From Candidatus Poribacteria bacterium (GTDB lineage Bacteria; Poribacteria; WGA-4E; WGA-3G): DNA of 64,000 bases. Position 1 is the stretch's first letter. The number at the start of each line of letters is the position of its first letter. Location of the stretch: NCBI GenBank assembly GCA_965214095.1, contig OZ243938.1, positions 1,536,001 through 1,600,000 on the forward strand, in the 5' to 3' direction. Below, in pieces: positions 41,275 through 64,000 of the stretch. Both the position numbers and the translations under genes were made by a program. Below the pieces are notes generated by a model. It was not told where the DNA came from, did no database searches, and saw only the letters and a program-made list of their open reading frames with translations.

Positions 41275-42063
41275 ATGCAAAAAGAGAATCGCGGGTTATC
41301 TGGTGCTAAAGCACTGCGACCCATCCCCGATAAATTAGTTGTCCTCACCTTTGATGACGGCAACAAGTCAGATTATACTAATGTTGCTCCTCTGTTAAAA
41401 CGATACGGTTTTGGAGCGACTTTTTTCATAACAGAAGGTCTCGGTTTTCTCAACAACAAAGATCACTATGTTACATGGGAAGAAATTCGTGAGTTACACG
41501 ATGAAGGTTTTGAGATAGGTAACCATACCCGTTATCATAATAACATCAACACACTATCACAGGAAGAGTTTTTGGAAGAATTGATCCACATTGACAATCG
41601 GTGTGAGGCGCATGAAATCCCTATTCCTGAGACCTTTGCTTATCCTGGAGACAGTCGTGGTCCAGAAGCGATAGAAGTATTGAAAGAAAAAGGCTATCCT
41701 TTCGCACGACGTGGTGTCGGACCAGATTTTCCCTATGACTTAGAAGGTGGACGCGGTCCTGCTTACGATCCGGATGTTCATCATCCGTTGGTTATTCCTT
41801 CAACAGGTGTCCCTGGTCCAAGCTATAAATTTGAGGACTTGGTTTGGGCAGTAGAACAAGCTAAGGATGGGAAAATCGCTGTCTTGACATTTCACGGTGT
41901 GCCTGCTCTTGAACACCCGTGGGTTGATACCCCACCTGAAGTGTTTGAGACCTACATGGATTATCTACGAGACAAAGAATGTACCGTTATTGCCTTGCGT
42001 GATTTGGCAAAATACGTTGATTCATCAAAAACAACAGGTAAAGACATAACATATTTTCCATAA
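41275..42063 (+). CDS. polysaccharide deacetylase (CE4/NodB) paralog B
   Basis: Same motifs as 38660-39451; close paralog. Confidence 0.9.
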   Translation: MQKENRGLSGAKALRPIPDKLVVLTFDDGNKSDYTNVAPLLKRYGFGATFFITEGLGFLNNKDHYVTWEEIRELHDEGFEIGNHTRYHNNINTLSQEEFLEELIHIDNRCEAHEIPIPETFAYPGDSRGPEAIEVLKEKGYPFARRGVGPDFPYDLEGGRGPAYDPDVHHPLVIPSTGVPGPSYKFEDLVWAVEQAKDGKIAVLTFHGVPALEHPWVDTPPEVFETYMDYLRDKECTVIALRDLAKYVDSSKTTGKDITYFP

Positions 42064-42389: not shown

Positions 42390-43948
<1,559 letters not shown>

Positions 43949-44060: not shown

Positions 44061-44134
44061 GGGCTTATAGCTCAGAAGGTTAGAGCGCGCGCCTGATAAG
44101 CGCGAGGTCCCTGGTTCGATTCCAGGTAAGCCCA
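44061..44134 (+). tRNA. tRNA-Ile(GAT)
   Basis: GGGCTTA/TAAGCCC acceptor stem, CGCGC-CTGATAA-GCGCG anticodon arm, GGTTCGATTCC T-arm; CCA not encoded. Confidence 0.96.
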
Positions 44135-44280
44135 TCTCTATTACCATATCAACCAATCATTTTCATCTGATAAACAGCCAACCCAAACTCATTAGAGAAT
44201 AAATCCAAACACAGAATAAAGCGCAAAGTCTCTGTGTCCTCCAATTCTTTATTATTTACAAAACGATTTTCATGCTTTCT

Positions 44281-44307
44281 GTAACCTGATATACGTTTAT
44301 TTCGTAA
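44281..44307 (+). promoter_or_regulatory. candidate autoregulatory ECF promoter
   Basis: GTAACC-N16-CGTAA, fitting the general ECF AAC..CGT consensus, about 60 bp before the sigma gene. Confidence 0.45.
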
Positions 44308-44370: not shown

Positions 44371-44991
44371 ATGGCGCGCCAAGCGAAGAACAAACTATCT
44401 GCTACCGAAGATACTTACTTAGCCACACAAGTCAAACAAGGGAATGAAGCAGCGTTTAGACAGTTGTTTGATAAACACTATGAGTGGGTCTATAGTAAGG
44501 CATATCGTATGCTAAAATACCACCATCAGGATGCAGAAGAGGTTAGTTTGGACGTATTTACTAAGGTCTGGGAAAAACTACAAGATAATAAATGGGACCC
44601 AAAGAAAGGAAGTTTTTGGGCTTGGCTAAATAAACTCGCGTTTAATACAATTGTTGATGCAATACGAAAAAGAGAACGGATTCGTGAATCGGTCCAAACC
44701 TATGAAGAACAGAATAACTTGCCGTTGAACCAGTACGAGGATGATGCCCCCGGGCCAGACAAACATATTATCGCTCAGGAAGCACAAGAAATATTAGAAA
44801 AGGCTCTTGAACAGGTCACAAGACCTAACCACCGTATTGCTTGGATATTACGACATTTAGAAGGATGTAGTGTCGCAGAGATTTCCCATATACTTAATAC
44901 AAAAGAAGGTACTGTGAAAATCTGGATTCACAGATGCACAATAGAACTCAGACAGATAATGGTCAACAATGGAATTACATGGATACAATAG
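44371..44991 (+). CDS. ECF-family RNA polymerase sigma factor
   Basis: GNEAAFRQLF..H, DAEEV..DVFTKVW, FWAWL, region 4 EG.SVAEIS.IL...EGTVK..IHR; GGAGG RBS. Confidence 0.93.
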   Translation: MARQAKNKLSATEDTYLATQVKQGNEAAFRQLFDKHYEWVYSKAYRMLKYHHQDAEEVSLDVFTKVWEKLQDNKWDPKKGSFWAWLNKLAFNTIVDAIRKRERIRESVQTYEEQNNLPLNQYEDDAPGPDKHIIAQEAQEILEKALEQVTRPNHRIAWILRHLEGCSVAEISHILNTKEGTVKIWIHRCTIELRQIMVNNGITWIQ

Positions 44992-45118
44992 TACTCTGTC
45001 CATTTTTTGTATTGTCCGTTGGGGAGAGAAACGACACCCGACTTTCTTTATGATAAGGGGCTGCATGTTGGGTGTCGTCCCTCTACCCCATTGAACAACG
45101 TTATTGAAGGAGATAATC

Positions 45119-47179
45119 GTGCCAGACAAAACCACTTCAAACCTAATACTTAGACCACTTAACGACACAGATGTTACAACTTGGGAACTCCCCGAAGGTG
45201 CAATTACCCGATTGGGACGGGGTAGACTGGTGAATATATCATTTTCACCTGATGGGAAGTATCTTGCTGTAGCAACTCCTATCGGATGTTGGTTGTATGA
45301 CCTACCCACGCTTACCCCTCGCTCATTGATTGAAACGGAACGCGGAATGCTTACGAAAATTGCTTTTTCTCGTGATGGACGGTGGATTGCTACGGGCAAC
45401 GCGGATGGTATCGTTAAGGTATGGGACACAGATACCTCACAGTGTCTTGCCAAAATAGATTACCACAAGATAATGGGAGGACCGTTGGGTTATTGTGATT
45501 TGAACTTTTCGGAGGATGGCAAATATCTTGCTGTGTCCAGCTCCAGTGGGTGTGCTGTCTTCACTTGGCACACAAATACTGATGAACCCATAGCACAGTT
45601 CTCGATTGATGCAGCAGATACGAATGGAAAACGCGTTCCTATCTACTTATCTCCTAACAGGAATATGTTTGCATACGTATCTTCTGTGTCTCCCATGACT
45701 ACAATAATGATTAAAGATATTGACACCGGTGAACATATTACAGACTATAGTTGTCCAGCACTTTATGCATTCACAGGTCTTGTATTTTCACCGTGTGGTC
45801 AGTATCTTGCATCTGTACATCAGAACGGCAATGTGCAGGTGCGTAATATTGACAATGCCACATCGGAGATAGTACATACCTTATCAGATGCGACTTCTGT
45901 GAGACTTGCGTATACGTCTGTTGGTGCATTGCGTATTGCTGAAATTCATGAGGAAAAAGTTGTAATTTGGGATACGGAGCAGTTTCAGAAGGTAGGTACA
46001 TTGGAATTTGAGAGACACGGAAGGAAAATATTTCGATTTTCGGACGATGGAACACATTTCGTAATCGCTAATTCACGCGAATTCCAAGTATGGAGGGATG
46101 GCGGATTGATTAAAGTTGTGTCTATGTCTGCTGCACATATAGGTATTATTAGATGGGTACGTTTTTCTCAACAGAAAAAGACACTAATTAGTGGACACGG
46201 ACCAAGTAATATGTTCTGGTCTTTAGAGGATCACCAGTTACAACATATCTTCTATCCCAAAACAGAGGGTTACTTTTTGGGAAGAAGTAGCGTCTTATCA
46301 CCTTGTGAAGAATCTCTTGCTACCCCTATTTTAGGTATCCGCAATAGCAACGACATCGCTATTACAATTTGGCATATTACATCTGGCACCTTAATTGCTG
46401 AGATGACTGGACATGAAAGACATGTCGTCCAGATGGCGTATTCACCGTCTGGAGACTTTTTAGTTAGTGCATCGTCACTTGGTGAGCTCATTGTATGGGA
46501 CACGCAGTTTTGGGAAAAGCGTCACGAACTTATAGGACATACTAAAGATATTACGAGTGTCTTTTTTCACCCTGATGGGAAGCAGCTTGTCACCGCGTCC
46601 AATGACAGGACTGCACGAGTCTGGAATGTTGAGAATGGTGAACAGGTCGGTTCACTTCCTTTAGACACAATCATAAAAGATATATCCCTTTATAGAGGTG
46701 GATCCCAAGAAATCCAGGCGTTAATAAAATGGAAACAGCAATTGGAGTCTGAGCAGTCAACTGATCAAACCATTTGTTCTGATATCCGGTTTTCTCCGTG
46801 CGGTACACTCATCGCCGGTAGGTTATATCGGCGCGGTAAATGGAAGAAGAAAATGGCAAATGAGATTAGACTTTGGGATGCAGCAACCTTAGAAATACGA
46901 ATGACGATACTGCTCCCTGCAGATGATTCCCTTACACGTGCGCTTACATTTTCACCATGCAGCCGCTACCTTGCCTCTGGAACGTGGTGGAAAAAAGGTT
47001 TAGAGAAGATGCGAATAAGGTTATGGGAGGTTGCGAGTGGGGAAAATATTGCTACCTTCTGGGGACATCCAACAGATATTCATGACCTGGCATTTTCACC
47101 TGATGGTTCGCTTCTCGCAAGTGGTAGTTATGATGGGACTATCCTCTTGTGGGACATGAAACCTTTTATTAACTCTTAG
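45119..47179 (+). CDS. WD40 repeat protein 1
   Basis: TTWELPEGAITRLGRG, many FSPDG/FSPCG..WD blades, C-terminal GHPTD..ASGSYDGTILLWD. Confidence 0.93.
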   Translation: MPDKTTSNLILRPLNDTDVTTWELPEGAITRLGRGRLVNISFSPDGKYLAVATPIGCWLYDLPTLTPRSLIETERGMLTKIAFSRDGRWIATGNADGIVKVWDTDTSQCLAKIDYHKIMGGPLGYCDLNFSEDGKYLAVSSSSGCAVFTWHTNTDEPIAQFSIDAADTNGKRVPIYLSPNRNMFAYVSSVSPMTTIMIKDIDTGEHITDYSCPALYAFTGLVFSPCGQYLASVHQNGNVQVRNIDNATSEIVHTLSDATSVRLAYTSVGALRIAEIHEEKVVIWDTEQFQKVGTLEFERHGRKIFRFSDDGTHFVIANSREFQVWRDGGLIKVVSMSAAHIGIIRWVRFSQQKKTLISGHGPSNMFWSLEDHQLQHIFYPKTEGYFLGRSSVLSPCEESLATPILGIRNSNDIAITIWHITSGTLIAEMTGHERHVVQMAYSPSGDFLVSASSLGELIVWDTQFWEKRHELIGHTKDITSVFFHPDGKQLVTASNDRTARVWNVENGEQVGSLPLDTIIKDISLYRGGSQEIQALIKWKQQLESEQSTDQTICSDIRFSPCGTLIAGRLYRRGKWKKKMANEIRLWDAATLEIRMTILLPADDSLTRALTFSPCSRYLASGTWWKKGLEKMRIRLWEVASGENIATFWGHPTDIHDLAFSPDGSLLASGSYDGTILLWDMKPFINS

Positions 47180-47314
47180 ACATTCCTTATCAATTCATTT
47201 ATAGCATTGCGATACCTGTTGCATTACACAACTCTGTCAGTCAATTTTACATAATATATCAGAGCATGAAGTTACCGAGTCTTGCATCTCATATACCAAT
47301 AAAGGAGATAATTT

Positions 47315-49285
47315 TTGAAAAACAGAGAACCCATAACACCTTCAATTAGACCTATCCACGACACGGATGTAACAACATGGGAACTCCCCGAAGGGGCAAT
47401 TGCCCGGTTGGGGCGGGGTGGAATTATGGGTAATATCATTCACGCACCTGATGGAAAGCACTTTGTTGTTCCAAGTTCCATAGGAGTCTGGTGGTACAAT
47501 ATATCTACAATGACACCTAATGCACTAATGGACACAGACAGAGGATACATTACTGCTATCTCATTTTCTCCAAATGGTAAAAGGCTTGCAACAGGTGATG
47601 GAGACGGTCTGGTCAAAGTATGGGATGTACAGAATGGTGTCAACATCGCGCAGATGGATCGGGATGAAAATGAGAAACCCTACCATTGTGTTTCCCGATT
47701 CGCATTTTCATCTGATAGTCAGTTTATTGCAGCTTCCAGTTTCCGTGATTATATCCTATACATCTGGAACACTGAAACGGGCAAACAAATTGGCAAATTC
47801 CACGATAATACCAATTATAGGTGGTGGCCTACTCTGCTACGTCCTATTGCCTTCTCTCCGGATGGCAGTTTGATAGCGTGTACAATGCCTGATGAGGGTC
47901 TATTCGCACATGCAGATCGTCGTGGAACGATCCGTACTCCCAATCATTCTTCCAACTATATTTCTGTATGGAATATAAAAACAAGTGAACAAATAGCATG
48001 TATTACAGAACATCCTGATTTTGTTAATAGTATTGTCTTTTCTCCTTGTGGAAAGTTTCTTATCTCTGGAGGAAGAGATGGAACAGTGAGGGTGTGGTCA
48101 GTTGAAACTTGGAAGATGCTCCATTCATTTAATAATCTTGGAACAGAACGGAAACAACTCTTCTATTCACCTAAAAGTGAATTGTTTGCTAAAGAAGCCT
48201 CTAAGGATAATTTCACTGTATGGAATGTATATGAAGGTCAAAAAACCGACACATACCTTGAAGAACATCGAAATATTCAAATCCCATATTCCACAAAGGA
48301 AGCACCATTTATTGTAGCCGATGAGAACGAATTTAGAGTGTGGAAAGTCGGTGATACTCAACCACATACTTTTGTTCATTCACACATAGAATTCTCTGAT
48401 TCAGTAGTATTCACAGAGGATGGAAAAACACTCGCAGGGGCAATTCGAGAAAATGGTATTATGTTGTGGGATATGACTAAACCATCATTTCCGCTAACAC
48501 ATTTGAATATATCTGGTAACAAGAAAATTGTTTCTTCGTTTGGTTCAGAAAAGATTTCTGTTATGGGTATAGAGGGGAACGCAGCTAAAGTATGGGTGTC
48601 TGGAGAGAGTCAACCAAGACATATATTCACACTTCCTAACGGAAAAGAAGAAGCGACATCAGCAGCATTCGCACAGGTAGAGAACCTGTTAGTTTGCAGT
48701 GGAACACAAAATAAACTCTACATATGGAACACTCAAACGAAAGAAATATTACATACACTCACACCAGATTTATCGGATGAAGATTCCATAGCATATTTGG
48801 AATTTAGTCCAGATGCAAAACTACTTTTCAGTGTCTCGGGACGGGGTCCCAGAACCTATCTATGGCAAGTTGAAACAGGAGAGATAATTGATACTTTCAC
48901 CTATAATACCAGAGTCATTACTTTTTCCCCATGTAGTTCAATAATAGCTTGTGCAGTACCCCCAGGAATTATATTATGGGATGTAAATCGTTCTGAAACC
49001 GTCATCGCAATGCCTGAGAAGGAAGAAGATTTTCTTGTAGCATTGTCATTTTCTCCATGCGGAAGATATTTAGTTTCCGGTTCAAATTGGCAGCAACGTA
49101 TGAATATAAAGAAAGTGGCTATTCGGTTATGGGAGGTTGCAAGTGGCAAAAACATTGCCACTTTTAGAGGACACCCAACTGATATTCAGTCATTGGCTTT
49201 CTCCCCAGATGGTAAACTGTTAGCCAGCGCAAGTTTTGATGGTACCATCCTCCTCTGGGATATGAAACCCTTTATTAACTCTTAG
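47315..49285 (+). CDS. WD40 repeat protein 2
   Basis: Same terminal motifs; AAGGAG RBS, TTG start. Confidence 0.93.
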   Translation: MKNREPITPSIRPIHDTDVTTWELPEGAIARLGRGGIMGNIIHAPDGKHFVVPSSIGVWWYNISTMTPNALMDTDRGYITAISFSPNGKRLATGDGDGLVKVWDVQNGVNIAQMDRDENEKPYHCVSRFAFSSDSQFIAASSFRDYILYIWNTETGKQIGKFHDNTNYRWWPTLLRPIAFSPDGSLIACTMPDEGLFAHADRRGTIRTPNHSSNYISVWNIKTSEQIACITEHPDFVNSIVFSPCGKFLISGGRDGTVRVWSVETWKMLHSFNNLGTERKQLFYSPKSELFAKEASKDNFTVWNVYEGQKTDTYLEEHRNIQIPYSTKEAPFIVADENEFRVWKVGDTQPHTFVHSHIEFSDSVVFTEDGKTLAGAIRENGIMLWDMTKPSFPLTHLNISGNKKIVSSFGSEKISVMGIEGNAAKVWVSGESQPRHIFTLPNGKEEATSAAFAQVENLLVCSGTQNKLYIWNTQTKEILHTLTPDLSDEDSIAYLEFSPDAKLLFSVSGRGPRTYLWQVETGEIIDTFTYNTRVITFSPCSSIIACAVPPGIILWDVNRSETVIAMPEKEEDFLVALSFSPCGRYLVSGSNWQQRMNIKKVAIRLWEVASGKNIATFRGHPTDIQSLAFSPDGKLLASASFDGTILLWDMKPFINS

Positions 49286-49423
49286 ACATTCCTTATCAAT
49301 TCATTTATAGCATAGCATAACAATACCGGTTGGATTACACAACTCTATCAGTCAATTTCACATTACATATCGTAGTGCGAAGTTACCGAACCTCGCAAGC
49401 CATAAAACAATAAAGGAGAATTG

Positions 49424-51418
49424 ATGGAAACCACAAAAACACAAACAACCACCCCTTTTCACTTTGATGATAGCAAAGTATGTAATTGGACACTTCCCGA
49501 AGGTGCAATCGCTCGATTAGGACGTGGAAGTGTACGTGATATGGAATTTTCACCGGATGGACAGTACTTCGCTGTTGGAACAACAATAGGACTTTGGATG
49601 TATCAACTTTCAACACTTTCCCCAATCACGCTCTGGGAAACTGATAGAGGATATATTGAAAGTGTTACATTCTCACCTGATGGTCGATGGATTGCTTCAA
49701 CTACACTTAACGAAGCACTCAGGGTGTGGGATATCCAGAACAAGAGTTGTATTACTGAGATGGAATTTAAGGAGAAACATACCAATTTCGGAATTGACAA
49801 ACCTGTTTTTTCCGCAGATGGAGACTGTCTTGTTGCATTTAATGTGAACAACAAGGTTTATTTTTTGTGTCCTCGCACCGGTACGAAAATGAGAGAAACA
49901 GAAATCAAAGTAAATGGAACAGAAAACGAAACAATTGATGGGATCTATCCCACTTGTTTTTCTCCGGATATCAGTTTGTTGGCAGGTGCGTGTTGCGATC
50001 ATAGAAACCGTACCGTTGAATTCATTGCACTGTGGGATGTGGAGACAGGTGAACAAGTCACTCGTCTTGAATGGACTGAAAGATGGGGTAACCTCTGTTT
50101 TTCACCGTGTGGAAGGTTTCTTGCTGCCGGCAGTTCAGAGGGTAAAATTCATGTGTGGGATGTGGAAAGTGGAAGTCTGATTGCAAGCTATTCTGACTAT
50201 GGAGATGCACGGATGACACCACATTATCCCTCGGAAGGTGGATTGATTGCAACTATGGTTTTTCCATCTGAACCCAAAATTGAAGTCTGGGATTTAGAAA
50301 GAAACGAAAAAATGGCGACGTTCGAAAAAGGGAGCAAACATAGTTTTGTCCGTTTTTCGAAAGATGACACAAAATTTGCATATACTGATGATGGGGAAAT
50401 CAAATTCTGGACAAAAGAAAAACCCATCTCGAAATTACTGCCGAGTATTAAAGGACATACACGTCCAGTCAGTTCATTAGTCTATGCAACAGATGAGAAA
50501 ACGCTTGTGGCTACGTACTGGGGGTGGAAAGCACTTTTTTGGGATGTTCCACGCAGACGAGGACAACGTCCAACTGGAACAGATTTACCCACAAGTAAAA
50601 CACTTCATCTCTATCAGGACAATGAGGGGAAAGTATATGCAACGGGTGGAGACAGTGCCTACCTAAGAGTGTGGAAGAATGGCAATAGTGAATCAATCAC
50701 CGATATTCCAATACATGAGCAAAAACTGCAATCAATCACAGGTAGTGAGGCGTTCGCATTAACAGCAGACCGGATAGCGCGGGCAGATAGAGATCATAAC
50801 ATCTATGTATGGATGTGTAAATCGAAATCAAATAGTAGTGATAATAAAAAGGACTGGATATTGCAAGTAAATCTGACCGGACATACAGAATACATTGAAG
50901 CTTTGGCATTTAGTCCTGACGCAAAACAACTCGTGAGTATATCGCGAGATAAAACTGCCAGATTATGGGATGTTGAATCAGGAGAACAGATCATACAACT
51001 ACCTTTAACCCCGCCTTCAAGTCCCAGACGATACCGAAGTTATGACAGAGGTATTACATTTTCACCTCGTGGAGACTTAATTGCAGGTGGACAGTGGGGA
51101 GAGATAGTGCTGTGGAATGCGACAGATGGAAAAATCTATAGGACAATTCCACAACCAGAAGGAAATCAGCGACCGATTACATTATGTTTTTCACCATGTG
51201 GGGAGTATCTCCTTTCCGGTTCATGGTGGCAAGGTGGTTTGCAGAAAGTGCCTATCCGTTTGTGGAAAGTAGCGACAGGTGAGAATATTGCCACGTTTTC
51301 TGGACACACTACAGACGTTCAGTGTTTTGCATTTAATCAGGATTGCACTGTTCTCGCCAGCGGTGGATATGATGGGGTAATATTCCTCTGGGATTTGAAA
51401 CCGTATATCAATTCATAA
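49424..51418 (+). CDS. WD40 repeat protein 3
   Basis: WTLPEGAIARLGRG, WD blades, GHTTD..LWDLKP. Confidence 0.93.
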   Translation: METTKTQTTTPFHFDDSKVCNWTLPEGAIARLGRGSVRDMEFSPDGQYFAVGTTIGLWMYQLSTLSPITLWETDRGYIESVTFSPDGRWIASTTLNEALRVWDIQNKSCITEMEFKEKHTNFGIDKPVFSADGDCLVAFNVNNKVYFLCPRTGTKMRETEIKVNGTENETIDGIYPTCFSPDISLLAGACCDHRNRTVEFIALWDVETGEQVTRLEWTERWGNLCFSPCGRFLAAGSSEGKIHVWDVESGSLIASYSDYGDARMTPHYPSEGGLIATMVFPSEPKIEVWDLERNEKMATFEKGSKHSFVRFSKDDTKFAYTDDGEIKFWTKEKPISKLLPSIKGHTRPVSSLVYATDEKTLVATYWGWKALFWDVPRRRGQRPTGTDLPTSKTLHLYQDNEGKVYATGGDSAYLRVWKNGNSESITDIPIHEQKLQSITGSEAFALTADRIARADRDHNIYVWMCKSKSNSSDNKKDWILQVNLTGHTEYIEALAFSPDAKQLVSISRDKTARLWDVESGEQIIQLPLTPPSSPRRYRSYDRGITFSPRGDLIAGGQWGEIVLWNATDGKIYRTIPQPEGNQRPITLCFSPCGEYLLSGSWWQGGLQKVPIRLWKVATGENIATFSGHTTDVQCFAFNQDCTVLASGGYDGVIFLWDLKPYINS

Positions 51419-51512
51419 CATTCCTCGTCAATTCTCTTGGTCAAATTCGCAATTCATCTCAACGTGCAAGATTAACGAATCTCGCCATTTATTAGAGTAA
51501 GGAGACATCATT

Positions 51513-53522: not shown

Positions 53523-53540
53523 AATACAAGGAGATGTTTT

Positions 53541-55550: not shown

Positions 55551-55645
55551 ATATGCCTTGTCATTTCTCTTGGTCAATTTCTTGAACAACTTAATTTGTA
55601 ACATTAACGACTCTCGCCATTTATAAGTGTAAAGGAGACATCATT

Positions 55646-57838
55646 TTGAGAAACAAACACACTTCAACTCCCGCTCTGCGACCACTTAACGACACAGATG
55701 TAACAACTTGGGAACTCCCTGAAGGCGCAATTGCTCGTTTAGGCAGAGGGCAGATAGGCAAAATAGCATTTTCACCCGATGGGACACATCTTGCTGTTCC
55801 AACACGTATCGGTTGTTGGTTGTATGACCTTGATACGATGACAAACCGCGCATTATGGGGAACAGAGCGTGGGATGGTCGCAACCATCTCATTTTCTGAC
55901 GATGCACAATGGGTTGCTACCAGCGACTGGGATGGTGTTGTGAAGATATGGAACACGCAAAACCTACAATGTGTCGCAGAAATAGATGTGCCCGAGGATT
56001 CGAGAGCTGTAAGAGTCGCGGCTACCAATGTCACCTTTTTGCCTGATAGACAACACTTAGCCATGTACTATTGTGACACATATTCCGACCAGACTCCAAG
56101 ATACTATGACAGACAGTGTGCCGTTTACGACTGGCGTACAGACATCGACACGCCTATCAAAAGCTACACAATAAAATCTGGGCGGGAAGGAGGCAACGTT
56201 GCTCCCAAAGTAATTTCATCAGATGGCAGCCTCTTTGCATACACGTCTGATGCAAACATGACATCCGTCATTTGTATGGAAACTAAGGAACTGATTGCAG
56301 AACTTCACGATGACTACACCGAAGAATCTGTAAGTGGATGTGACAGACTCGTTTTTTCTCCCTGTGGAGAGTATCTCGCCGCCTGTAACAGGGGAAACAA
56401 GGTGCATATATGGAATATACATAATGGCACCTTGGAAATGGCACCTACCACTTATGGTGAAAATCACTACATAATGTTTGGCATACCTTCTTATACGAAG
56501 GATGGGACCTTACAGGTTGCTGGTATCGGTGGCATGAAAGTCGTGTTATGGGATGCAGCTCAACAGGAGACAATAGATACTTTTGAATCTTGGAATCCGT
56601 CTAATATCAGTGCATGTTTTTCAAAAGATGGCACACGTTTTGCTGTTGCTAATGCACGCGGAGAACTCCATGTCTGGACAGAAGGGGCAGCAGCACTTGC
56701 ATCTCTCCCTGTACATCATCAGAACGCCGGTTCAGTAAGTTTTTCTAAAGATGGTCGTACACTGGTAAGTACACACCGGACCCATTCCGCAGTCTGTGTA
56801 TGGAATGTTACAAGCCGACAGGTTAAACGCACATTCCACTTTGAGAACAGGAACCCCAATATACCCGGTGGCATTGTTACCTCACCCGGTGGGGAACTAT
56901 TGGCAATCAACAAAGCAAAGGAAGATTCAATTAGTGTTTGGCATCTTCCATCTGACACACAAGTCACAGAATTCACCGGAAAAAAATTGAGAGTCAGAAA
57001 AATGGTGTTCTCACCAACTGGGGAATATCTTGTGAGTGTAAACAATCTTACCTCTATTAAAGTTTGGCATGTTGCATCCGGTACACAAGTCACTGAACTT
57101 CCCAAAAGTCCATCTTCACATGTGTTCAAGATAGGGTTCTCACCTACAGGGGCATACTTCGTTGTCATCTATGGAGATAGTATCGCTGTGTGGGATGTGC
57201 AGCAATGGGAAAAACACTATCACGCACCACTAACACCACAAACATATCCGGGCTGGAAGTTGCATTTTGATTTGGATGGTAAGCAGTTTTACACTCGTCC
57301 TCCAAGAGGAGCTGCTATAGTCTGGAATTTCAAAAGCGACGAACAAATCGGATTGCTTGATATTGAACCATGTATAGATACTTCTATATATAAAGGCATG
57401 CTACAAGACCTTCAACGTGCCCAAGAGCGTCAGAGGGAAGGTCCCCGTCGCATTAGAGCACTCCAGACTTCTACTTGTCATGACATTATCGCTGGTGGAA
57501 TGTGGGGTGAAATTAGACTTTGGGACGCAACTACCTTCAAAACGCTGATGGCACTAATTCAACCTACAGGATATCAAGCACCCTACGCGCTCGCATTTTC
57601 ACCATGTGGTAAATACCTTGCCTCTGGTTCTCGATGGGACCCGAAATGGGAAAAGGGACAGCAAAAAACCTCCGTCCGTTTGTGGGATATTGCCACGTGT
57701 GAAAATTTTCACACCTTCTGGGCACACCCTACTGATATATTATCGGTCAATTTTTCACCGGATGGCAAACTGCTGGCAAGTAGTAGTTATGATGGCACCA
57801 TCCTCCTTTGGGATGTAAAACCCTTTATAAGTGCTTAA
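55646..57838 (+). CDS. WD40 repeat protein 6
   Basis: Same architecture; AAGGAG RBS, TTG start. Confidence 0.93.
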   Translation: MRNKHTSTPALRPLNDTDVTTWELPEGAIARLGRGQIGKIAFSPDGTHLAVPTRIGCWLYDLDTMTNRALWGTERGMVATISFSDDAQWVATSDWDGVVKIWNTQNLQCVAEIDVPEDSRAVRVAATNVTFLPDRQHLAMYYCDTYSDQTPRYYDRQCAVYDWRTDIDTPIKSYTIKSGREGGNVAPKVISSDGSLFAYTSDANMTSVICMETKELIAELHDDYTEESVSGCDRLVFSPCGEYLAACNRGNKVHIWNIHNGTLEMAPTTYGENHYIMFGIPSYTKDGTLQVAGIGGMKVVLWDAAQQETIDTFESWNPSNISACFSKDGTRFAVANARGELHVWTEGAAALASLPVHHQNAGSVSFSKDGRTLVSTHRTHSAVCVWNVTSRQVKRTFHFENRNPNIPGGIVTSPGGELLAINKAKEDSISVWHLPSDTQVTEFTGKKLRVRKMVFSPTGEYLVSVNNLTSIKVWHVASGTQVTELPKSPSSHVFKIGFSPTGAYFVVIYGDSIAVWDVQQWEKHYHAPLTPQTYPGWKLHFDLDGKQFYTRPPRGAAIVWNFKSDEQIGLLDIEPCIDTSIYKGMLQDLQRAQERQREGPRRIRALQTSTCHDIIAGGMWGEIRLWDATTFKTLMALIQPTGYQAPYALAFSPCGKYLASGSRWDPKWEKGQQKTSVRLWDIATCENFHTFWAHPTDILSVNFSPDGKLLASSSYDGTILLWDVKPFISA

Positions 57839-57970
57839 AGCCATTCATGTCAATTCACCGATAGTATATCGGCTGCTGCTGGCATAGTGAACTCACCCAA
57901 CCAACTTCGTAATAAGCATGCTAGACACTTAAACCTCAAACACTTTTTGGCAACAACAGGAGGCACTTTT

Positions 57971-60007
57971 ATGGAAAACAGACAACCTTTAACTCCCGTA
58001 CTGCGACCACTTAACGACACTGATGTAACAACTTGGGAACTCTCCGAAGGTGCAATTGCCCGATTCGGACACGGATTGAGACTTGACGTAGAATTCTCAC
58101 CCGATGCCGCATATCTTTCCGTAGCAACAAAAATTGGATTCTGGCTATATGATACGGATACCCTTGCACCTCGCGCATTGTGGGGTACCGAACGCGGCAT
58201 GATGAATGTCGCCACCTTCTCGCATGATTCACGTTGGATTGCCACTGGTGACCAAGACGGGATTCTCAAGGTGTGGGATACACAAAACGGACAGTGCGTT
58301 GCAAAAACTGACTGGGGAGGTACTGAGGAACGCAATGTCATCCTTCATGCCCACTTTTCACTGGACGATCAATATCTCGCTGCTTCCGGTTTTGGACATA
58401 GTGCTGTCTATACCTGGAATAGAGAACTCAACGCACCTATCAGGAATTTTAAACTTGAAAAGCCAAAATTAGCGGATTATAGAAAAGAAGGTACTTCTTA
58501 TGACAGATATTTTCCCATCGCTTTTTCACCCAACAGTAATCTATTCGCTTATGTGTCTTCACCGGAAGCAGTAACGGTTTCAGATATAAACACAAGTGAA
58601 GAGATAGCACACCTCACGGGACACACTACCCCATTACATACCCTCCTGTTTTCACCCTGTGGACAACACCTTGCGAGTGCAAGTCGTGGCACTGCAGTTC
58701 AAGTATGGGATATTCATAATGAATCTCTTGTTATGGCACCCAAAACATATCAAGGTGAAAGAGTAAGACTTGCGTACACACCAGATGAGACATTACGTGT
58801 TGCAGACATTTATAATGACAAAGTGGTAATGTGGGATGCTTCACAGCACAAAAAGTTGGATACCTTCAACACTATTGGGAATACAGACAGTAAGGCAAGG
58901 TTTTCAAACGATGGAACAAAATTCGCAATTACATGCAGGAACCGCAAAATCCAAATATGGCATGAAGATGATTCTACTACAAAATCGTTCTTTTCTGGAT
59001 ATGGAAGTATTCCTTATTCGGTGGCATTTATGCAGGATAACAAAACATTGATCGGTGGGAACTGGGGAGGTACTGGTAAGTTATTTTGGGATATAAATAG
59101 ACGGGAAGTCCAGCGGATACTGCCACCAGAGAAACGCAGTTCTTCCAGAGGATGCATGACGTTGTCTCCAGATGATCAACTCTTGGCTATTGATACAGGA
59201 GACAATGATATACACGTCTGGCATGTTGAAACTGATGAATTAGTTGCAGAACTAACAGGACATGAAAATCGGATTTATTCGTTGACGTTTTCTCCTACCG
59301 GTAAATACCTTGTCAGTGGAGGATGGAAAGACGAATTATACGTTTGGGATGTCGCGCGCTGGGAAAAACATCACACACTTATAGGACATACAAGTTCAAT
59401 TGAGGCAATTGCATTCCATCCTGATGGAAAACGGTTCGTTACCTCCTCCAGGGATGGAACAGCCTTGCTATGGAATGTTGAAACCGGAGAACAAATCTCA
59501 CCACTTCCTTTACCTGAAACCTTAGAGGATGTCTCTCTATACAGGGGTGAACCAGACGAAATTGAACGAGTTATCAATGGTGGGAATCTTCAATATAAGA
59601 AATATCAACACATGCAATCTATTGTTTTTTCGCCTTGTGGCAACTGGATTGCTGGTGGACTCGGCACATGGATCGCTGATGCGTTAATAAATGAAATCCG
59701 ATTGTGGGACACAGAAACGTTAGAAACACGCATGATATTCCTTCAACCTCATGGATGTATTCGTCCGTGGGCATTAGCATTTTCTCCGTGTGGAAAGTAT
59801 CTCGCATCAGGTGCTTGGTGGAAATGGGGATTAGACAAAGCACCTATCCACTTGTGGGAAATGACGACTGGCGAAAATATCCATACTTTCTGGGGACACG
59901 CATCGGATGTTCAAGATGTAGCCTTTTCACCAGATGGAAAATATTTGGCAAGTGGCAGTTATGATGGCACTGTCCTATTGTGGGCTATGGAACCATTTCT
60001 TGATTAG
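57971..60007 (+). CDS. WD40 repeat protein 7
   Basis: AGGAGG RBS before MENRQP; WD blades. Confidence 0.93.
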   Translation: MENRQPLTPVLRPLNDTDVTTWELSEGAIARFGHGLRLDVEFSPDAAYLSVATKIGFWLYDTDTLAPRALWGTERGMMNVATFSHDSRWIATGDQDGILKVWDTQNGQCVAKTDWGGTEERNVILHAHFSLDDQYLAASGFGHSAVYTWNRELNAPIRNFKLEKPKLADYRKEGTSYDRYFPIAFSPNSNLFAYVSSPEAVTVSDINTSEEIAHLTGHTTPLHTLLFSPCGQHLASASRGTAVQVWDIHNESLVMAPKTYQGERVRLAYTPDETLRVADIYNDKVVMWDASQHKKLDTFNTIGNTDSKARFSNDGTKFAITCRNRKIQIWHEDDSTTKSFFSGYGSIPYSVAFMQDNKTLIGGNWGGTGKLFWDINRREVQRILPPEKRSSSRGCMTLSPDDQLLAIDTGDNDIHVWHVETDELVAELTGHENRIYSLTFSPTGKYLVSGGWKDELYVWDVARWEKHHTLIGHTSSIEAIAFHPDGKRFVTSSRDGTALLWNVETGEQISPLPLPETLEDVSLYRGEPDEIERVINGGNLQYKKYQHMQSIVFSPCGNWIAGGLGTWIADALINEIRLWDTETLETRMIFLQPHGCIRPWALAFSPCGKYLASGAWWKWGLDKAPIHLWEMTTGENIHTFWGHASDVQDVAFSPDGKYLASGSYDGTVLLWAMEPFLD

Positions 60008-60083
60008 CATATATATGCATCAGATTGAACTAAAGTATTCTTTAGTGTCCAAACAAGCTGTAGCAATTGCTGAGGAGATTATT

Positions 60084-62075
60084 ATGTATCATAATCAAAT
60101 CTATAATACGAATCAAATGAAGTCTGATAATACAGATGTAACAACATGGGAACTCCCCGATGGCGCAATCGCCCGATTAGGACGGGGTTGGGTGCGCCGA
60201 GATATAGCATTTTCACCTAAAGGGGTGTGTCTAGCTATTGCGACAGACATCGGTTGTTGGTTATATGACCTTGATACGATGGTGCCACGTGTGTTGTGGG
60301 ATACAGAACGGGGGATGGTTTCTGCCATCTCCTTTTCACACGATGCACGATGGATTGCTACCGGAAACACCGATGGCACCTTGAAGATATGGTCCACAGA
60401 AACTCTCCAATACATCATAGAAATTGAAACCGGAAAACCTGTTTTCCAACTTAGCTTTTCACCAGATGGACAGTACTTAGCATGTGTCAGTAAAATGTCT
60501 ACGGGAAGTTGTCGAACAAGTATTTATATTTGGCGTGAAAACACCGGCACACCGATCATAGATTTCTCTTTTACATCTAAGCCAGGCGGGCATAATTCAT
60601 ACGCAACAGCTTTTTCACATAATGGTGAACTATTTGCATATACGTCTGATTATAATATCATATCTGTAATAAATGTAGAGACGAATGAATGTATCGCTCA
60701 ACTTCCGGAAGTATCCACTGAACAACGGTCCGCTGTTGGTCCTCAACTCATTTTTTCTCACTGCGGGAAGTATCTTTCTGGCTACATTCGAAAAAATAGG
60801 ATCTACGTTTGGGATCTCTTCTGCGGTACAATGGAAAAATCGATGGAATATAATAAAATCAATAGGTTGATCCCGACCTTCACATCTGATAGTACTTTGC
60901 GGGTAGCATGTATCTCTGACAACGAGGTGGTCATCTCAAACGCAGCTCAGCAGGAGAAAGTGGATACCTTTGAAATTTGGGGACCGTCTGAAGTATCAGC
61001 TTGTTTCTCAGCAGATGGATCAAGATTTATTATTTCGAATAGACGCGGCGACCTTTACATGTGGACAGAAACCTCTTCTCCATCTGTAAATATTCTCACT
61101 GGACATTTGCCAGGGGTTAGACAGGTAGGTTTTTCTAAAGATAGCAGAACACTAGTGAGTAATTACGATTATCGAGCTGGATGTCGGTTATGGAATGTTG
61201 AGAGTAAACGGGTCGGATTGACCTTTCTTTTTCAATATTCGGATCGTAATTCACCCGGTAAGATGGTTATCTCCCAAGGTCAGGAATTCTTCGCTACTAC
61301 TAACGGAAACGGTATTAATATTTGGGATATAGCATCTGGCACACAAATATCAGAACTTACCGTAAAGCCTACAAGTGTACGCAATATGGCTTTTTCACTA
61401 ACTGGGGAATATCTCATAGGAAACCACAGAGGAGGAGTTACAGTATGGAATACGATGCAATGGGAAAAGTGCTATACTCTGAGTATTGAACAAATTGATC
61501 TCCGTAAAGCTCGGTTGCTGTTTCATCCAAACGGTGAGTTTTTTATAATTATTCCGCGTGAAGGGGATAATCTTATTTGGGATCTCAAGAGTGGTGATCA
61601 AGTTGGCACACTATCCACAGCAATGTGCTCAGATATCACCCTATTTAGAGGTCTAAAAACGGACATCCAGAGAGCTCCTAAACAGCAAACACACCCTCGA
61701 CGTGTATGGGGATTTGAGGCATCCCCTCGTGGCACACTTCTCGCTGGGGGAATGTGGGATGAAATTAGAATTTGGGACGCTGCTACCTTAGAAACGCGTA
61801 TGGTCATAATTCCACCTGAAGGATGTCAAAAGCAGCATACGCTTGCATTTTCCCCTTGTAGCCGCTACCTTGCCTCCGGTACATGGTGGCAAAGGGGTCA
61901 GAAGAAGGTATCCATCCGGTTATGGGAGGTAGCTACAGGTGAGAATATACATACTTTCTGGGGACACCCTACTGATGTGCAGTGTCTCGCTTTCTCACCG
62001 GATGGCAGGATTTTGGCAAGTGGTAGTTTTGATGGCACCATCCTCCTCTGGGATATGAAACCATTTATAAATTAA
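60084..62075 (+). CDS. WD40 repeat protein 8
   Basis: GAGGAG RBS before MYHNQ; WD blades. Confidence 0.93.
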   Translation: MYHNQIYNTNQMKSDNTDVTTWELPDGAIARLGRGWVRRDIAFSPKGVCLAIATDIGCWLYDLDTMVPRVLWDTERGMVSAISFSHDARWIATGNTDGTLKIWSTETLQYIIEIETGKPVFQLSFSPDGQYLACVSKMSTGSCRTSIYIWRENTGTPIIDFSFTSKPGGHNSYATAFSHNGELFAYTSDYNIISVINVETNECIAQLPEVSTEQRSAVGPQLIFSHCGKYLSGYIRKNRIYVWDLFCGTMEKSMEYNKINRLIPTFTSDSTLRVACISDNEVVISNAAQQEKVDTFEIWGPSEVSACFSADGSRFIISNRRGDLYMWTETSSPSVNILTGHLPGVRQVGFSKDSRTLVSNYDYRAGCRLWNVESKRVGLTFLFQYSDRNSPGKMVISQGQEFFATTNGNGINIWDIASGTQISELTVKPTSVRNMAFSLTGEYLIGNHRGGVTVWNTMQWEKCYTLSIEQIDLRKARLLFHPNGEFFIIIPREGDNLIWDLKSGDQVGTLSTAMCSDITLFRGLKTDIQRAPKQQTHPRRVWGFEASPRGTLLAGGMWDEIRIWDAATLETRMVIIPPEGCQKQHTLAFSPCSRYLASGTWWQRGQKKVSIRLWEVATGENIHTFWGHPTDVQCLAFSPDGRILASGSFDGTILLWDMKPFIN

Positions 62076-62395
62076 CGACTTGTGCTAAAAAACTAAATGT
62101 TAAGTATTGATTCACACATTCAGGTCCTTTTGTCCGTATTTCTTTCACTTAAGATGCTCTTTAGTCCCGTATGAAGATAAAAAACAAATAGGGTAATTTG
62201 ACTTCAAAGTCCAGCGCGCTTACAAAGCGCGCCTACGGGTTTGACAAGCGCGCAAGCAAAGCACGCCTACAGGTCTTGGGTTAATTAAGATTAACCGTTT
62301 AATAAATTAATCTTCATTAGGGACGATATGCTTATAGTGTTAATGCTATTAAATGTAAAAACCAACAAGACAGAATGTTAACTGGCACAAGTCGT
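62075..62395. mobile_element. MITE (321 bp) with 11-bp terminal inverted repeats and 6-bp target-site duplication
   Basis: ACGACTTGTGC / GCACAAGTCGT; AAATTA at 62069-62074 and 62396-62401; the paralogous junction near 60000 lacks it. Confidence 0.8.
62213..62270 (-). repeat. tandem GTAG-REP doublet
   Basis: Minus strand GTAGGCGTGCTTTGCTTGCGCGC and GTAGGCGCGCTTTGTAAGCGCGC. Confidence 0.75.
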
Positions 62396-62478
62396 AAATT
62401 AGCATATATGTGCATCAGATTGAACTAAAATATTCTTTAGTGTCCAAACAAGCCGTAGCAATTGCTGAGGAGATTATT

Positions 62479-64000
62479 ATGCATCATAATCAAAACTATA
62501 ATACGAATCAAATGAAGTCTGATAATACAGATGTGACAACTTGGAAACTTCCTGAAGGTGCGATCGGCAGATTAGCCAGAGGACGCGTGTCAGATATGTC
62601 CTTTTCAACTGATGGTAAATATCTTGCCGTCGCAACCCCCATCGGCTGTTGGTTGTATGATAGATTGTCGCTGAAACCACTTGACTTGTTTGAAACAGAA
62701 AGTGGAATGCTTAATACCATTGTCTTTTCACGCGATACCCGGTTGATTGCCACCAGTAATTTTGATGGCGTAGTGAAGGTATGGGACGTACAAACGCTAA
62801 AGTGTCTCGCAAAGATAAACCATCGCAAGAATATAGATGCAACTTCAGGATATTCTTGGAACCTCCATTTTTCTTGGGACAACGCATACTTAGCAGCATC
62901 TTGTTTTGACAAACAAAATGTTGTCTACGCGTGGCACAAAAACACTGATGAACCTATCACGATATTTCCGATTGACGTAGCAGAAGAGAGCGGACACCAT
63001 TTTCCTATCTGTTTTTCTCCGATAGGGAACTTACTTGCATACGTATCTGCTGGAACACCGCATCACACTCTCACCATTTCCGATATAGAGACCAGTGAAC
63101 ACATCACACATCTCAACTGCATAGCACCATTGGTATACCGAGGTCTTGTCTTTTCTCCTTGTGGGCAATATATAGCTGCTGCTAATCAGAACAATGAAGT
63201 CTTGGTGTGGAATGTTTACAACGACACTTTGGAAATGGAACCCACTACTTATGATGGGAGGAGGTTAATCCCTGCCTATACACCCGATGGCACACTACGC
63301 GTTGCCGATATTTACGACTATAAAGTTGTAATATGGGATGCTATCCGAAAAGAAAAAATAGATACATTTGACCGTCAGAACCCCAGACATGATCATTTTT
63401 TAAGCGGACATCAGGAACATTTTTCAAGCGATGGCTCGTATGTCGCAACGATCCTCTCACGTAGCAATCTTTGTGTGTGGACAGTCGGGTCACCATCAAC
63501 CAAAGTTTCAAGTCCTGCTGATCATAAACCTGTTGCACATTCGGTTGCTTTTTCTAAAAACGGAAAGACATTAGCAAGTGGACATGGGTTTGGTATGTAT
63601 CACGTATTCTGGGATGCTGCACAAAGACAAACAGAACAAATATTCCCAATGCCAAATATCCAAGCACAACGTACAACTCTAACTAAAGACCTAACAGAAG
63701 AAGAGAAACAGCAGTGGTACCGTGTCAGTGCTTTGTCGCCTTGTGGAGAACGACTGACACTTCGCGACCTTCCGAGGGGGTCAGTTGAAATTTGGGATAT
63801 TGCGTCTGAAACCCTCATTACAGAACTATCGGACAGTAACAGATTTAGATCTTGGCGTGAAATGCGTTTTTCACCTACAGGTGAACATTTTATCGGCATA
63901 ACAGCTACAGGTGATATTGATGTCTGGGATACACAGTCCGGTGAGAAAGTCAATACACTCGCAGGAGATAACCGACTGATTTTGACAACTGCGTTTCACC
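62479..64000 (+). CDS. WD40 repeat protein 9 (partial, runs off right edge; absent from ORF track)
   Basis: ATG 62479 reads MHHNQNYNTNQMKSDNTDVTTWKLPEGAIGRLARG.. with WD blades continuing towards the edge. Confidence 0.9.
   Translation, partial: MHHNQNYNTNQMKSDNTDVTTWKLPEGAIGRLARGRVSDMSFSTDGKYLAVATPIGCWLYDRLSLKPLDLFETESGMLNTIVFSRDTRLIATSNFDGVVKVWDVQTLKCLAKINHRKNIDATSGYSWNLHFSWDNAYLAASCFDKQNVVYAWHKNTDEPITIFPIDVAEESGHHFPICFSPIGNLLAYVSAGTPHHTLTISDIETSEHITHLNCIAPLVYRGLVFSPCGQYIAAANQNNEVLVWNVYNDTLEMEPTTYDGRRLIPAYTPDGTLRVADIYDYKVVIWDAIRKEKIDTFDRQNPRHDHFLSGHQEHFSSDGSYVATILSRSNLCVWTVGSPSTKVSSPADHKPVAHSVAFSKNGKTLASGHGFGMYHVFWDAAQRQTEQIFPMPNIQAQRTTLTKDLTEEEKQQWYRVSALSPCGERLTLRDLPRGSVEIWDIASETLITELSDSNRFRSWREMRFSPTGEHFIGITATGDIDVWDTQSGEKVNTLAGDNRLILTTAFH

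Follow-up and report, generated by a model that had tools for sequence, protein, structure and literature searches.

A tandem array of predicted double WD40 propeller genes behind a duplicated ECF sigma factor gene in a Candidatus Poribacteria genome

RESULTS

An ECF sigma gene followed by a long array of WD40 genes

We analyzed a stretch of 64,000 nucleotides (nt) from the genome of a Candidatus Poribacteria bacterium (GenBank assembly GCA_965214095.1; 5.25 Mb in 4 contigs, 94% complete). This stretch, referred to here as the window, is C1:1536001-1600000, with C1 being contig OZ243938.1. Toward its downstream end, a gene for an extracytoplasmic function (ECF) sigma factor is followed by nine co-oriented genes for WD40 proteins, W1 to W9 (Table 1), and it is this pair of elements, the ECF gene and the WD40 array, that concerns us. 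The 16S rRNA gene and a tRNA-Ile gene immediately precede the ECF gene.

The ECF gene, called copy B below, has clear matches to the Pfam models Sigma70_r2 (47.8 bits; cut-off, 24), Sigma70_ECF (41.3 bits; cut-off, 21.1), and Sigma70_r4_2 (31.3 bits; cut-off, 25.7) and to the NCBIfam model TIGR02937 (94.4 bits; cut-off, 42.9); none of the NCBIfam equivalog models attained its cut-off on this protein. It consists of sigma2 and sigma4 domains only, as in group 4 (ECF) members of the sigma-70 family, and has two invariant Cys residues, both in sigma4 (C166 and C189). No classical anti-sigma gene adjoins it.

The WD40 genes were delimited as longest open reading frames (ORFs). For W1, W7, W8, and W9, the position of the ribosome-binding site (RBS) and analogy with the paralogues indicate that the true start is probably internal to the longest ORF. 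With these starts, the proteins measure about 656 to 730 amino acids (aa). Every array gene has its own RBS, a start codon, and an intact frame, and the spacers measure 18 to 135 nt over the array's first half. The array does not stop at the edge of the window: it runs on to C1:1611386, with 14 genes in all, and a looser, more divergent 15th member lies at C1:1614139-1616169; overall, the 14 to 15 genes occupy about 35 kb.

Table 1. Features at the downstream end of the window; positions are counted from the first letter of the window
Feature	Position	Longest ORF	Strand	Evidence or remark
16S rRNA gene	42390..43940		+	Rfam RF00177, 1543 bits
tRNA-Ile (GAT)	44061..44134		+	ARAGORN; Rfam RF00005, 74 bits; last RNA gene ahead of the ECF gene
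ECF-type promoter-like motif TGTAAC-N17-TCGTA	44280..44306		+	Its end is 65 nt upstream of the ECF ATG; putative function
ECF sigma factor copy B, 206 aa	44371..44991		+	Pfam, NCBIfam
Spacer with strong hairpin, part of a dispersed repeat	44992..45103		+	RNA fold -41.2 kcal/mol, z = -4.3
W1, predicted double WD40 propeller	45119..47179	45104-47179	+	Likely start GTG 45119 after AAGGAG RBS
W2, 656 aa	47315..49285	47315-49285	+	Modeled protein; Pfam; AlphaFold2; Foldseek
W3, 665 aa	49421..51418	49421-51418	+	58% identical to W4; Pfam; RNA-library contigs of a related strain
W4, 669 aa	51513..53522	51513-53522	+	Pfam; RNA-library contigs of a related strain
W5, 669 aa	53541..55550	53541-55550	+	18 nt past W4; Pfam
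W6, 730 aa	55646..57838	55646-57838	+	Pfam
W7	57971..60007	57887-60007	+	Likely start ATG 57971
W8	60084..62075	59934-62075	+	Likely start ATG 60084 after GAGGAG RBS
W9	62479..64000, on to C1:1600560	62410-end (3' open)	+	Likely start ATG 62479; extends past the window

Some further features were seen along the array. The spacer between W8 and W9 (window 62076-62409) is unusually long, at 334 nt, and holds GC-rich repeated words (GCGCGC..TACA/GG). From W8 on, several of the array genes share a conserved leader of ~55 nt that ends in GAGGAGATTATTATG. Between W14 and the 15th WD40 gene, at C1:1611460-1614139, stand tandem paralogues of 425 and 440 aa, 67% identical to each other. The genome has no further copies, and neither protein has a Pfam match above cut-off; a relative (G006) has a similar start after its own array. 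By eye, their N terminus resembles sigma region 2, and the protein atlas scores for the 425-aa ORF are weak (0.84 to 0.86), a lead only.

Array proteins have constant ends, variable middles, and no export signal or effector domain

All nine window ORFs match the Pfam WD40 model PF00400 above its cut-off, at 53 to 191 bits; NCBIfam models run on W1 and W2 gave nothing exceeding cut-offs. The nine share an N-terminal block, ..DVTTWELPEGAIARLGRG, for which W3 has the variant KVCNWTLPEGAIARLGRG, and the eight genes that are complete within the window all encode the C-terminal block GH..LASxSxDGTILLWD.

Nothing in the sequences suggests export or membrane attachment. In none of the 15 array proteins did a hydrophobic stretch pass the transmembrane test, and in a search for signal peptides the maximal 12-residue hydropathy ahead of the N-terminal block was only -1.8 to 1.1. 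Between 0 and 5 residues follow the C-terminal block, leaving no Por_Secre_tail of the kind found on secreted proteins sorted by the type IX secretion system (T9SS). NTPase, nuclease, and other effector domains are absent from the Pfam results. The stretch ahead of the propeller is only about 20 residues long, no anti-sigma domain of the ASD, zf-HC2, or RskA type was found in it, and no anti-sigma family is among the best 25 of the 35 to 51 Pfam matches per protein.

An AlphaFold2 model of W2, built from a 48-row alignment, has a mean predicted local distance difference test (pLDDT) score of 83.1 and a predicted template modeling score (pTM) of 0.84 and shows 14 blades by strand order. Foldseek searches with this model returned tandem WD40 propellers only, at template modeling scores of 0.45 to 0.69 and 12 to 23% identity. 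The model thus supports the prediction that the array proteins are double seven-bladed WD40 propellers. In the model, the last blade has nothing beyond its strand C, where the chain ends, and the residues ARLGR at the N terminus form a lone strand; from this we infer a classical velcro closure, with the two chain ends meeting in a conserved clasp.

The 14 core array proteins are mostly 31 to 48% identical to one another, with higher values for what appear to be younger pairs (W9/W11/W14, 75 to 83%; W12/W13, 73%; W5/W10, 62%; W3/W4, 58%). Conservation is concentrated at the ends. Amino acid identity by alignment window is 0.62/0.53 over the first 60 columns and 0.62 to 0.67 over the last 60, and it is 0.20 to 0.48 in between. 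Identity of synonymous codons, counted where the residue is the same, is flat along the genes (0.39 to 0.56, with 0.53 and 0.43 to 0.45 at the two ends), and therefore the ends appear to be held by selection at the protein level and not by gene conversion. When mapped by strand order on the W2 model, the conserved blades are 13, 14, 1, and 2 (entropy, 0.72 to 1.30 bits, versus 1.55 to 2.06 bits in the other blades). Blades 3 to 12 are the variable ones, most of all in the loops matching the canonical ligand-binding top face: among the paralogues, the predicted top-face loops (D-A and B-C) have an entropy of 2.07 bits, versus 1.49 bits for the bottom loops (Mann-Whitney P = 1e-10), with the faces assigned from strand order in the model, not from coordinates, and with loop misalignment inflating the entropy. 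The gap is smaller in 32 rows of W2 orthologue-like sequences (1.44 versus 1.17 bits; P = 0.007). Greater variability of the top face is common across WD40 families.

A first-pass annotation of the same DNA, made from the letters and ORF translations alone, had described an ECF gene at the head of a run of co-oriented double-propeller WD40 genes with constant ends, had considered the products to be stand-alone proteins lacking signal peptides and effector domains, and had noted the lack of an adjacent anti-sigma gene. Our analysis bears out this description and extends the array from nine genes to 14 or 15. The divergence is also nonuniform and, on the model, focused on the surface, as that annotation had anticipated; the 16S rRNA and tRNA-Ile genes were missing from it.

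The array belongs to a large family that includes fusions to ECF sigma domains

To place the array in the genome, all ORFs were searched with hidden Markov models of the N- and C-terminal blocks, and those of at least 550 aa with the N-terminal block were kept. The resulting family has 111 members: 62 have a signal-peptide-like hydrophobic N terminus that ends right at the N-terminal block, 31 are without one, 12 are fused to an ECF sigma domain, and 6 carry other N-terminal extensions. At ~2 kb per ORF, the family makes up very roughly 4% of the genome. Four longer members that were tested end in a dockerin and FlgD_ig/Por_Secre_tail; three of the four pass the Por_Secre_tail cut-off, and three of the four have cohesin. 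The ORFs at C1:4824832-4838534 and 982953-989061, which combine a signal peptide, a double propeller, a dockerin, and FlgD_ig/Por_Secre_tail, look like secreted or cell surface versions.

In the 12 ECF fusions, the sigma parts score 72 to 98 bits on TIGR02937. In eight, a single transmembrane helix separates the sigma domain from the propeller, so that the propeller would lie outside the cell; the other four have no transmembrane helix. By these predictions, the propellers of the family occur in three topologies. Another 23 ECF proteins have a C-terminal part that is not of this WD40 family, and the three that were checked consist of an ECF domain, a transmembrane helix, and a BNR/Sortilin propeller. 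At C1:3228977-3285826, where many of these proteins are encoded, we also observed a tandem run of ~16 genes encoding proteins of ~1,000 aa each, with the ECF sigma domain first; those tested continue with one transmembrane helix and then a BNR/Sortilin-Vps10-type or WD40 propeller, and some neighboring sigma domains in this run are near-identical (branch lengths about 0 to 0.01).

The two types of protein, free array members and ECF fusions, meet in the propeller tree. In a FastTree phylogeny of 107 propeller modules, a 23-member clade takes in every one of the 15 array genes (SH-like support, 0.982). This clade is made up of 21 signal-peptide-less proteins and two ECF fusions without a transmembrane helix (C1:888713 and C1:891161), and none of the signal-peptide members are in it. 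The second fusion, C1:891161-893767, is 39 to 40% identical to W2 and is among its closest full-length matches outside the array. It occurs as a single ORF of 868 to 883 aa, at 65 to 82% identity, in eight other species of the genus. In the databases, 26 clusters cover 100% of its residues 1 to 330, annotated merely as "sigma-70 family RNA polymerase sigma factor." The linker of this fusion keeps the sequence F-MENQ...GDVTTW, like the N termini of the free W proteins, which suggests that the fusion arose when an ECF gene joined a downstream WD40 gene. In two other genomes (G003 and G019), in-frame ECF remnants with stops lie upstream of an unfused propeller.

An ECF domain is present inside the gene or within 3 kb at four of five loci of the cytoplasmic clade, compared to 7 of 40 loci of the signal-peptide type, counts that rest on few, paralogous, and non-independent loci. 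Judged from the conserved fusions lacking a transmembrane helix and from this recurrent proximity, a link between the putative cytoplasmic propellers and ECF sigma domains is real at the level of the family.

Structure prediction did not clarify how the two parts might touch. The model of the 868-aa fusion without a transmembrane helix, made with nine orthologues, was poor (pLDDT, 66; pTM, 0.55; sigma part, 25 to 55), so that docking is unreadable, and complex prediction for W1 with copy B gave a score of 0.00 against a mark of 0.32, which is no evidence either way.

Copy B is a recent duplicate at a broken rRNA operon

A second ECF gene of the same type, copy A, is found at C1:1261229-1261846(-); over the ORF only, copies A and B are 81% identical in amino acids and 79% identical in nucleotides. 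We searched for both in 41 genomes, our own (G000) and 40 relatives. A copy-A-type ECF gene (E <= 1e-30) was present in 38 of the 41, at 77 to 81% identity within the genus and 60 to 65% in three other families. A second copy was found only in G000, G021, G005, and G016, where it is 86 to 100% identical to the window gene. By this distribution, copy B is a recent, lineage-specific duplicate of a conserved ECF gene. The synonymous divergence (dS) between the copies is 1.0 to 2.3, and the ratio of nonsynonymous to synonymous change (dN/dS) between species is 0.19 to 0.24 for copy B and 0.02 to 0.035 for copy A. By these estimates, copy B is under purifying selection, though 7 to 10 times more relaxed than copy A. 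Next to copy A, 38 nt after it, the gene at C1:1260550-1261191(-) encodes a protein with a C-terminal FHA domain, and we consider the two a candidate regulator pair for the copy-A ECF type.

The site that received copy B is itself unusual. The 16S rRNA gene of the window is the sole copy detected in the genome by blastn, and the rRNA operon is broken exactly between tRNA-Ile and tRNA-Ala. The tRNA-Ala(TGC) gene and the 23S gene, C1:961981-964979(-), lie 615 kb off on the opposite strand, beside two signal-peptide-type WD40 genes (C1:961981-965150 region). Three genomes of other families scanned with Rfam keep the linked order 16S-tRNA-tRNA-23S-5S; in G001, a member of the genus, an insert of ~4 kb carrying three ORFs separates tRNA-Ile from tRNA-23S. 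The spacer behind tRNA-Ile looks like a hot spot of insertion and rearrangement. A local gene duplication is seen upstream of the 16S gene, where two ORFs (window 38694-39451 and 41306-42063) share 87% identity across 758 nt.

The order 16S, tRNA-Ile, ECF gene, and WD40 array was found in three genomes. In G000, copy B is followed by the 14 to 15 WD40 genes; in G021, by a 91-aa remnant, three full WD40 genes, and two fragments; and in G005, by four WD40 genes. In G016, the 16S/tRNA-Ile-ECF order is present and the contig ends 1.2 kb past the ECF gene. Among nine genus members without copy B, five have WD40 genes straight after 16S-tRNA-Ile (G022, five genes in 12 kb; G017, five; G006, four; and G003 and G024, one each), and in the other four (G001, G007, G009, and G020) there are none behind tRNA-Ile. 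Five genomes of other families were inspected, among them the three with the linked 23S gene, and none has a WD40 gene directly after tRNA-Ile.

Orthologues of the W types, at 65 to 91% identity, recur in reordered form in G021, G005, G022, G017, G003, G024, and G006, and the number and order of WD40 genes at the locus vary between species; the first WD40 gene behind the ECF gene differs between G000 and G021. On these comparisons, the array genes are old paralogues kept intact, each type having orthologues in sister species.

Promoter, spacer hairpin, and transcripts

The promoter-like motif ahead of copy B is shared with its orthologues. All 30 upstream regions, taken from orthologues of both copies, contain the pattern TG[AT]A[AG]C-N14-19-CG[TC][TA], placed between -74 and -98, so that copy B appears to carry a putative autoregulatory ECF promoter of the "-35 GAAC-like/-10 CGT" kind. 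When the motif was relaxed, the 37-kb array region gave four matches, and the control also gave four; the sole intergenic or gene-upstream match was the promoter of the ECF gene itself.

The spacer between copy B and W1 is predicted to fold into a strong hairpin (Table 1). It is part of a dispersed repeat of ~80 to 100 bp (window 44989-45088), of which blastn found 16 further copies in the genome at 81 to 85% identity; four copies lie beside WD40 genes (C1:908933, 908989, 2051275, and 5030083). Sites resembling sigma-70 promoters occur at chance level (48 versus 44.8 expected), as do sites resembling intrinsic terminators (16 versus 14.6 expected), and none of the terminator-like sites listed falls within the spacers separating array genes. 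Read-through from the ECF promoter into the array is possible.

Assembled contigs from RNA libraries (three metatranscriptome runs of one study, from a related strain of 90 to 99% likeness) cover the ECF gene and the W3 and W4 types. Each run has one contig that joins the tRNA-Ile end or the spacer to the whole ECF gene and a 3' remnant of a WD40 gene, an arrangement like that of G021. These data, being assembled contigs only, cannot show transcription, strand, or cotranscription, and the fact that W1, W2, and W5 to W8 are uncovered carries no meaning.

DISCUSSION

A proposed repertoire of cytoplasmic propellers with a facultative link to ECF sigma factors

The interpretation that we favor, with middling confidence, is that the array encodes a diversified repertoire of cytoplasmic binding proteins whose link to ECF sigma factors is real but optional. 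We imagine that the double propellers differ in specificity and that each binds proteins as a scaffold or receptor. In one sub-lineage, copy B brought its own putative ECF-type promoter to the tRNA-Ile/array site, and transcription from this promoter may cross the hairpin spacer into the array and add an ECF-dependent component to its expression; sister species would express the array without the ECF gene. Since two members of the array clade are fused to ECF domains, and since the same WD40 protein is fused in some species and unfused in others, it seems likely that the cytoplasmic propellers are optional partner modules, sensing or regulatory in nature, available for coupling to ECF sigma factors.

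Several findings weigh against this interpretation. For the diversified binding faces, these are the limits on the loop entropies and the general variability of WD40 top faces, both described above. For the sigma link, the ECF gene at the head of the array is a late recruit in one sub-lineage and not the founder of a conserved operon, and the array stands without it in five of nine genus members. Copy A has no WD40 neighbor in any of the seven genomes examined; downstream of it in G000 are the FHA-domain protein (213 aa; 26 bits, with a cut-off of 20.7) and then a TPR/peptidase-MA protein. In a tree of 50 ECF domains, copies A and B share a long branch within the solo ECFs and are separate from the clade to which most of the extended ECFs belong, and the fused ECF domains derive from at least two ECF clades, neither being the clade of the window ECF. 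The WD40 protein of the conserved fusion occurs free in 11 other genomes (72 to 76% identity), 9 of which have no ECF gene upstream, and therefore the propeller can work without sigma. The 62 signal-peptide-like members of the family share these end blocks with the array proteins, and it is therefore unlikely that the blocks form a surface for docking to sigma. At the level of transcription, the promoter motif has 85 matches genome-wide, versus 122 in a reversed-sequence control, and only 8 of the genome matches lie upstream of ORFs, none ahead of any WD40 gene; the hairpin of -41.2 kcal/mol between the ECF gene and W1 could halt transcripts.

These findings bear directly on the stronger claims of the first-pass annotation. 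It had called the repertoire sigma-controlled and had expected the pairing of ECF gene and array to be conserved across relatives. The expected synteny fails, with a second ECF copy in 4 of 41 genomes, and a sigma-controlled system is not established: the promoter motif is found only at the ECF gene, the first WD40 gene behind it varies among species, and the parent copy lives apart from WD40 genes in the seven genomes examined. What survives of the sigma link is its family-level part, the two same-clade members fused to ECF domains, one of which is conserved in eight other species. Nor is the locus an isolated undescribed system, as had been proposed, since it is one of the loci of a ~111-gene family, and WD40 sensors are cataloged for ECF39, ECF57, ECF62, ECF232, and ECF266 in the sources discussed at the end.

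Alternative explanations

The ECF gene and the array may be neighbors by accident. A duplicate could have landed in the tRNA-Ile spacer, and the array would then consist of eukaryote-like proteins with no tie to sigma that act on proteins of the sponge host, for instance after lysis or uptake of the symbiont, or on the bacterium's own proteins. The ECF-less arrays in five sister species and the recent origin of copy B, confined to four genomes, fit well with this. So does the variable nature of the site, where G001 has three unrelated ORFs and other families have the linked 23S gene, and so does the dispersed repeat in the spacer. WD40 abundance in Poribacteria is on record (PMC3909097), and 62 of the 111 family members look exported, some with cohesin, dockerin, and a T9SS-type tail. 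However, no export signal is present in the array proteins, their clade holds the two ECF fusions conserved across species, and copy B is under apparent purifying selection, with its promoter intact at the site in four species. On balance, we regard accidental adjacency as possible but somewhat unlikely.

At the other extreme, one can envision a modular form of sensing in which double WD40 receptors are interchangeable between the cell surface, a membrane tether to an ECF domain, and the cytoplasm, there either fused or free, with the 15-gene array feeding ECF-dependent transcription in trans. The array may in that case act through copy B or through the fused paralogues, for example by sensing cytoplasmic proteins derived from the host or from phages. 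We find so comprehensive a scheme doubtful.

The first-pass annotation had also raised the possibility of soluble anti-sigma partners. In such a model, the array proteins would bind copy B as anti-sigma or co-sigma factors, each gating it in response to a different ligand. They are adjacent to and co-oriented with the ECF gene in three to four species, there is no classical anti-sigma gene beside copy B, propellers of the same clade are covalently tied to ECF domains, and WD40 or propeller domains occur in anti-sigma factors of ECF39, ECF232, and ECF266 (PMC7826278). But the ~20 residues ahead of the propeller are too short for an anti-sigma domain, which spans about 90 aa and usually has a transmembrane helix after it, and the Pfam results described above name no anti-sigma family among the best matches; the WD40 anti-sigma factors in the catalog entries that we drew on are membrane proteins with an extracellular propeller. 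Moreover, copy B is 81% identical to a gene with an FHA-domain neighbor and no WD40 neighbor, the first gene after the ECF gene changes from species to species, and the fused ECF domains come from other ECF clades. We consider this model improbable.

Still less probable, in our view, is an intracellular anti-phage repertoire that would use WD40 domains as sensors, like STAND-type defense proteins. The diversified paralogues with variable putative binding faces and their tandem birth-and-death evolution would suit such a role, but the proteins have no NTPase, nuclease, or other effector domain, and the paralogue types are 65 to 91% conserved between species, with no rapid sequence turnover. PADLOC gave only partial WD-repeat matches on the array, at 17 to 39 bits to one model of 1,972 positions, too weak to count as defense genes; it assigned the ECF protein and the two ORFs after W14 to no family. 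Least probable of all are silent cassettes with constant flanks, of the kind that antigenic variation brings into an expression site by recombination, a scheme that the constant ends, variable middles, and long tandem array might bring to mind but that sits badly with an RBS, start codon, and intact frame in every gene and with the stable inheritance of paralogue types between species; gene conversion between cassettes is disfavored by synonymous-codon identity that is flat and not raised at the ends.

Implications

ECF signaling is otherwise known mainly for envelope signals. If the coupling that we favor is real, the ECF::double-propeller fusions lacking a transmembrane helix, together with their free paralogues, would represent a cytoplasmic, protein-sensing input to ECF signaling. 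It would further suggest a function, open to experimental test, for one of the largest "eukaryote-like" families of a sponge symbiont that is dominant and uncultivated. Even on a more ordinary reading, the locus illustrates how such a family may grow by tandem birth and death, how a conserved four-blade clasp can be combined with variable binding faces, and how regulators can be recruited to such families through duplication, insertion, and fusion.

Relation to known systems

The same two-seven-bladed-propeller fold occurs in eukaryotic tandem WD40 proteins, such as Aip1 (1nr0), Gemin5 (5h3u), UTP/PWP2 of the small-subunit (SSU) processome, and WD proteins of doublet microtubules. With these, the array proteins share only the generic fold, at 12 to 23% identity, and no function can be transferred.

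Closer to the organism, the abundance of WD40 domains in Poribacteria has been recorded as part of its eukaryote-like repeat proteins, and a Por-secretion C-terminal sorting domain was noted among the WD40 genes (Kamke et al. 2014, PMC3909097). Those proteins are from the same phylum and domain class, and a Por-type sorting domain is also found in longer members of the family described here. That paper counts Pfam domains; in the portion of its text that we drew on, the double-propeller architecture, tandem arrays, signal-peptide-less clade, and ECF fusions have no part, and the word "sigma" is absent. Our literature search returned no paper linking Poribacteria with ECF sigma factors.

Among classified ECF groups, the nearest likeness is to ECF57, some members of which have WD40-like repeats in a C-terminal extension (Casas-Pastor et al. 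2021, PMC7826278; reviewed in PMC8999054). As in our 12 fusions, an ECF sigma domain is covalently placed ahead of a WD40 propeller with a presumed role in regulating sigma by protein interaction. The group is described in the supplement of PMC7826278 as 100% Planctomycetes, with ~2 transmembrane helices and with one Cys in sigma2 paired with another in sigma4, both fully conserved. In contrast, our organism belongs to the Poribacteria, as the names given to its homologues also indicate; eight of the 12 fusions have one transmembrane helix and the other four have none; and across the 35 extended ECF domains of this genome, a single alignment column, in sigma2, has Cys in at least 50% of the sequences, and there in all 35. 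The fusions would therefore fit the ECF57 architecture only loosely. The window ECF, which ends with sigma4 and has no C-terminal extension, appears to lack its features altogether, and the ECF57 description, as far as we used it, has no counterpart to free propeller arrays.

In other groups, the propeller is likewise the sensing part. WD40 or propeller sensor domains are listed for membrane anti-sigma factors of ECF39, ECF232 (s4/5), and ECF266, and WD40 repeats are listed for kinases associated with ECF62 (PMC7826278 supplement). The eight fusions with an ECF domain, a transmembrane helix, and a WD40 propeller fit this pattern, as do the ECF-BNR/Sortilin fusions that were checked. Compared to these entries, the array proteins differ in having no transmembrane helix and no anti-sigma or kinase domain and in being predicted to be cytoplasmic. 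The locus can be seen as a variation on two known themes, the repeat proteins of sponge symbionts and ECF sigma factors with WD40 sensor domains.

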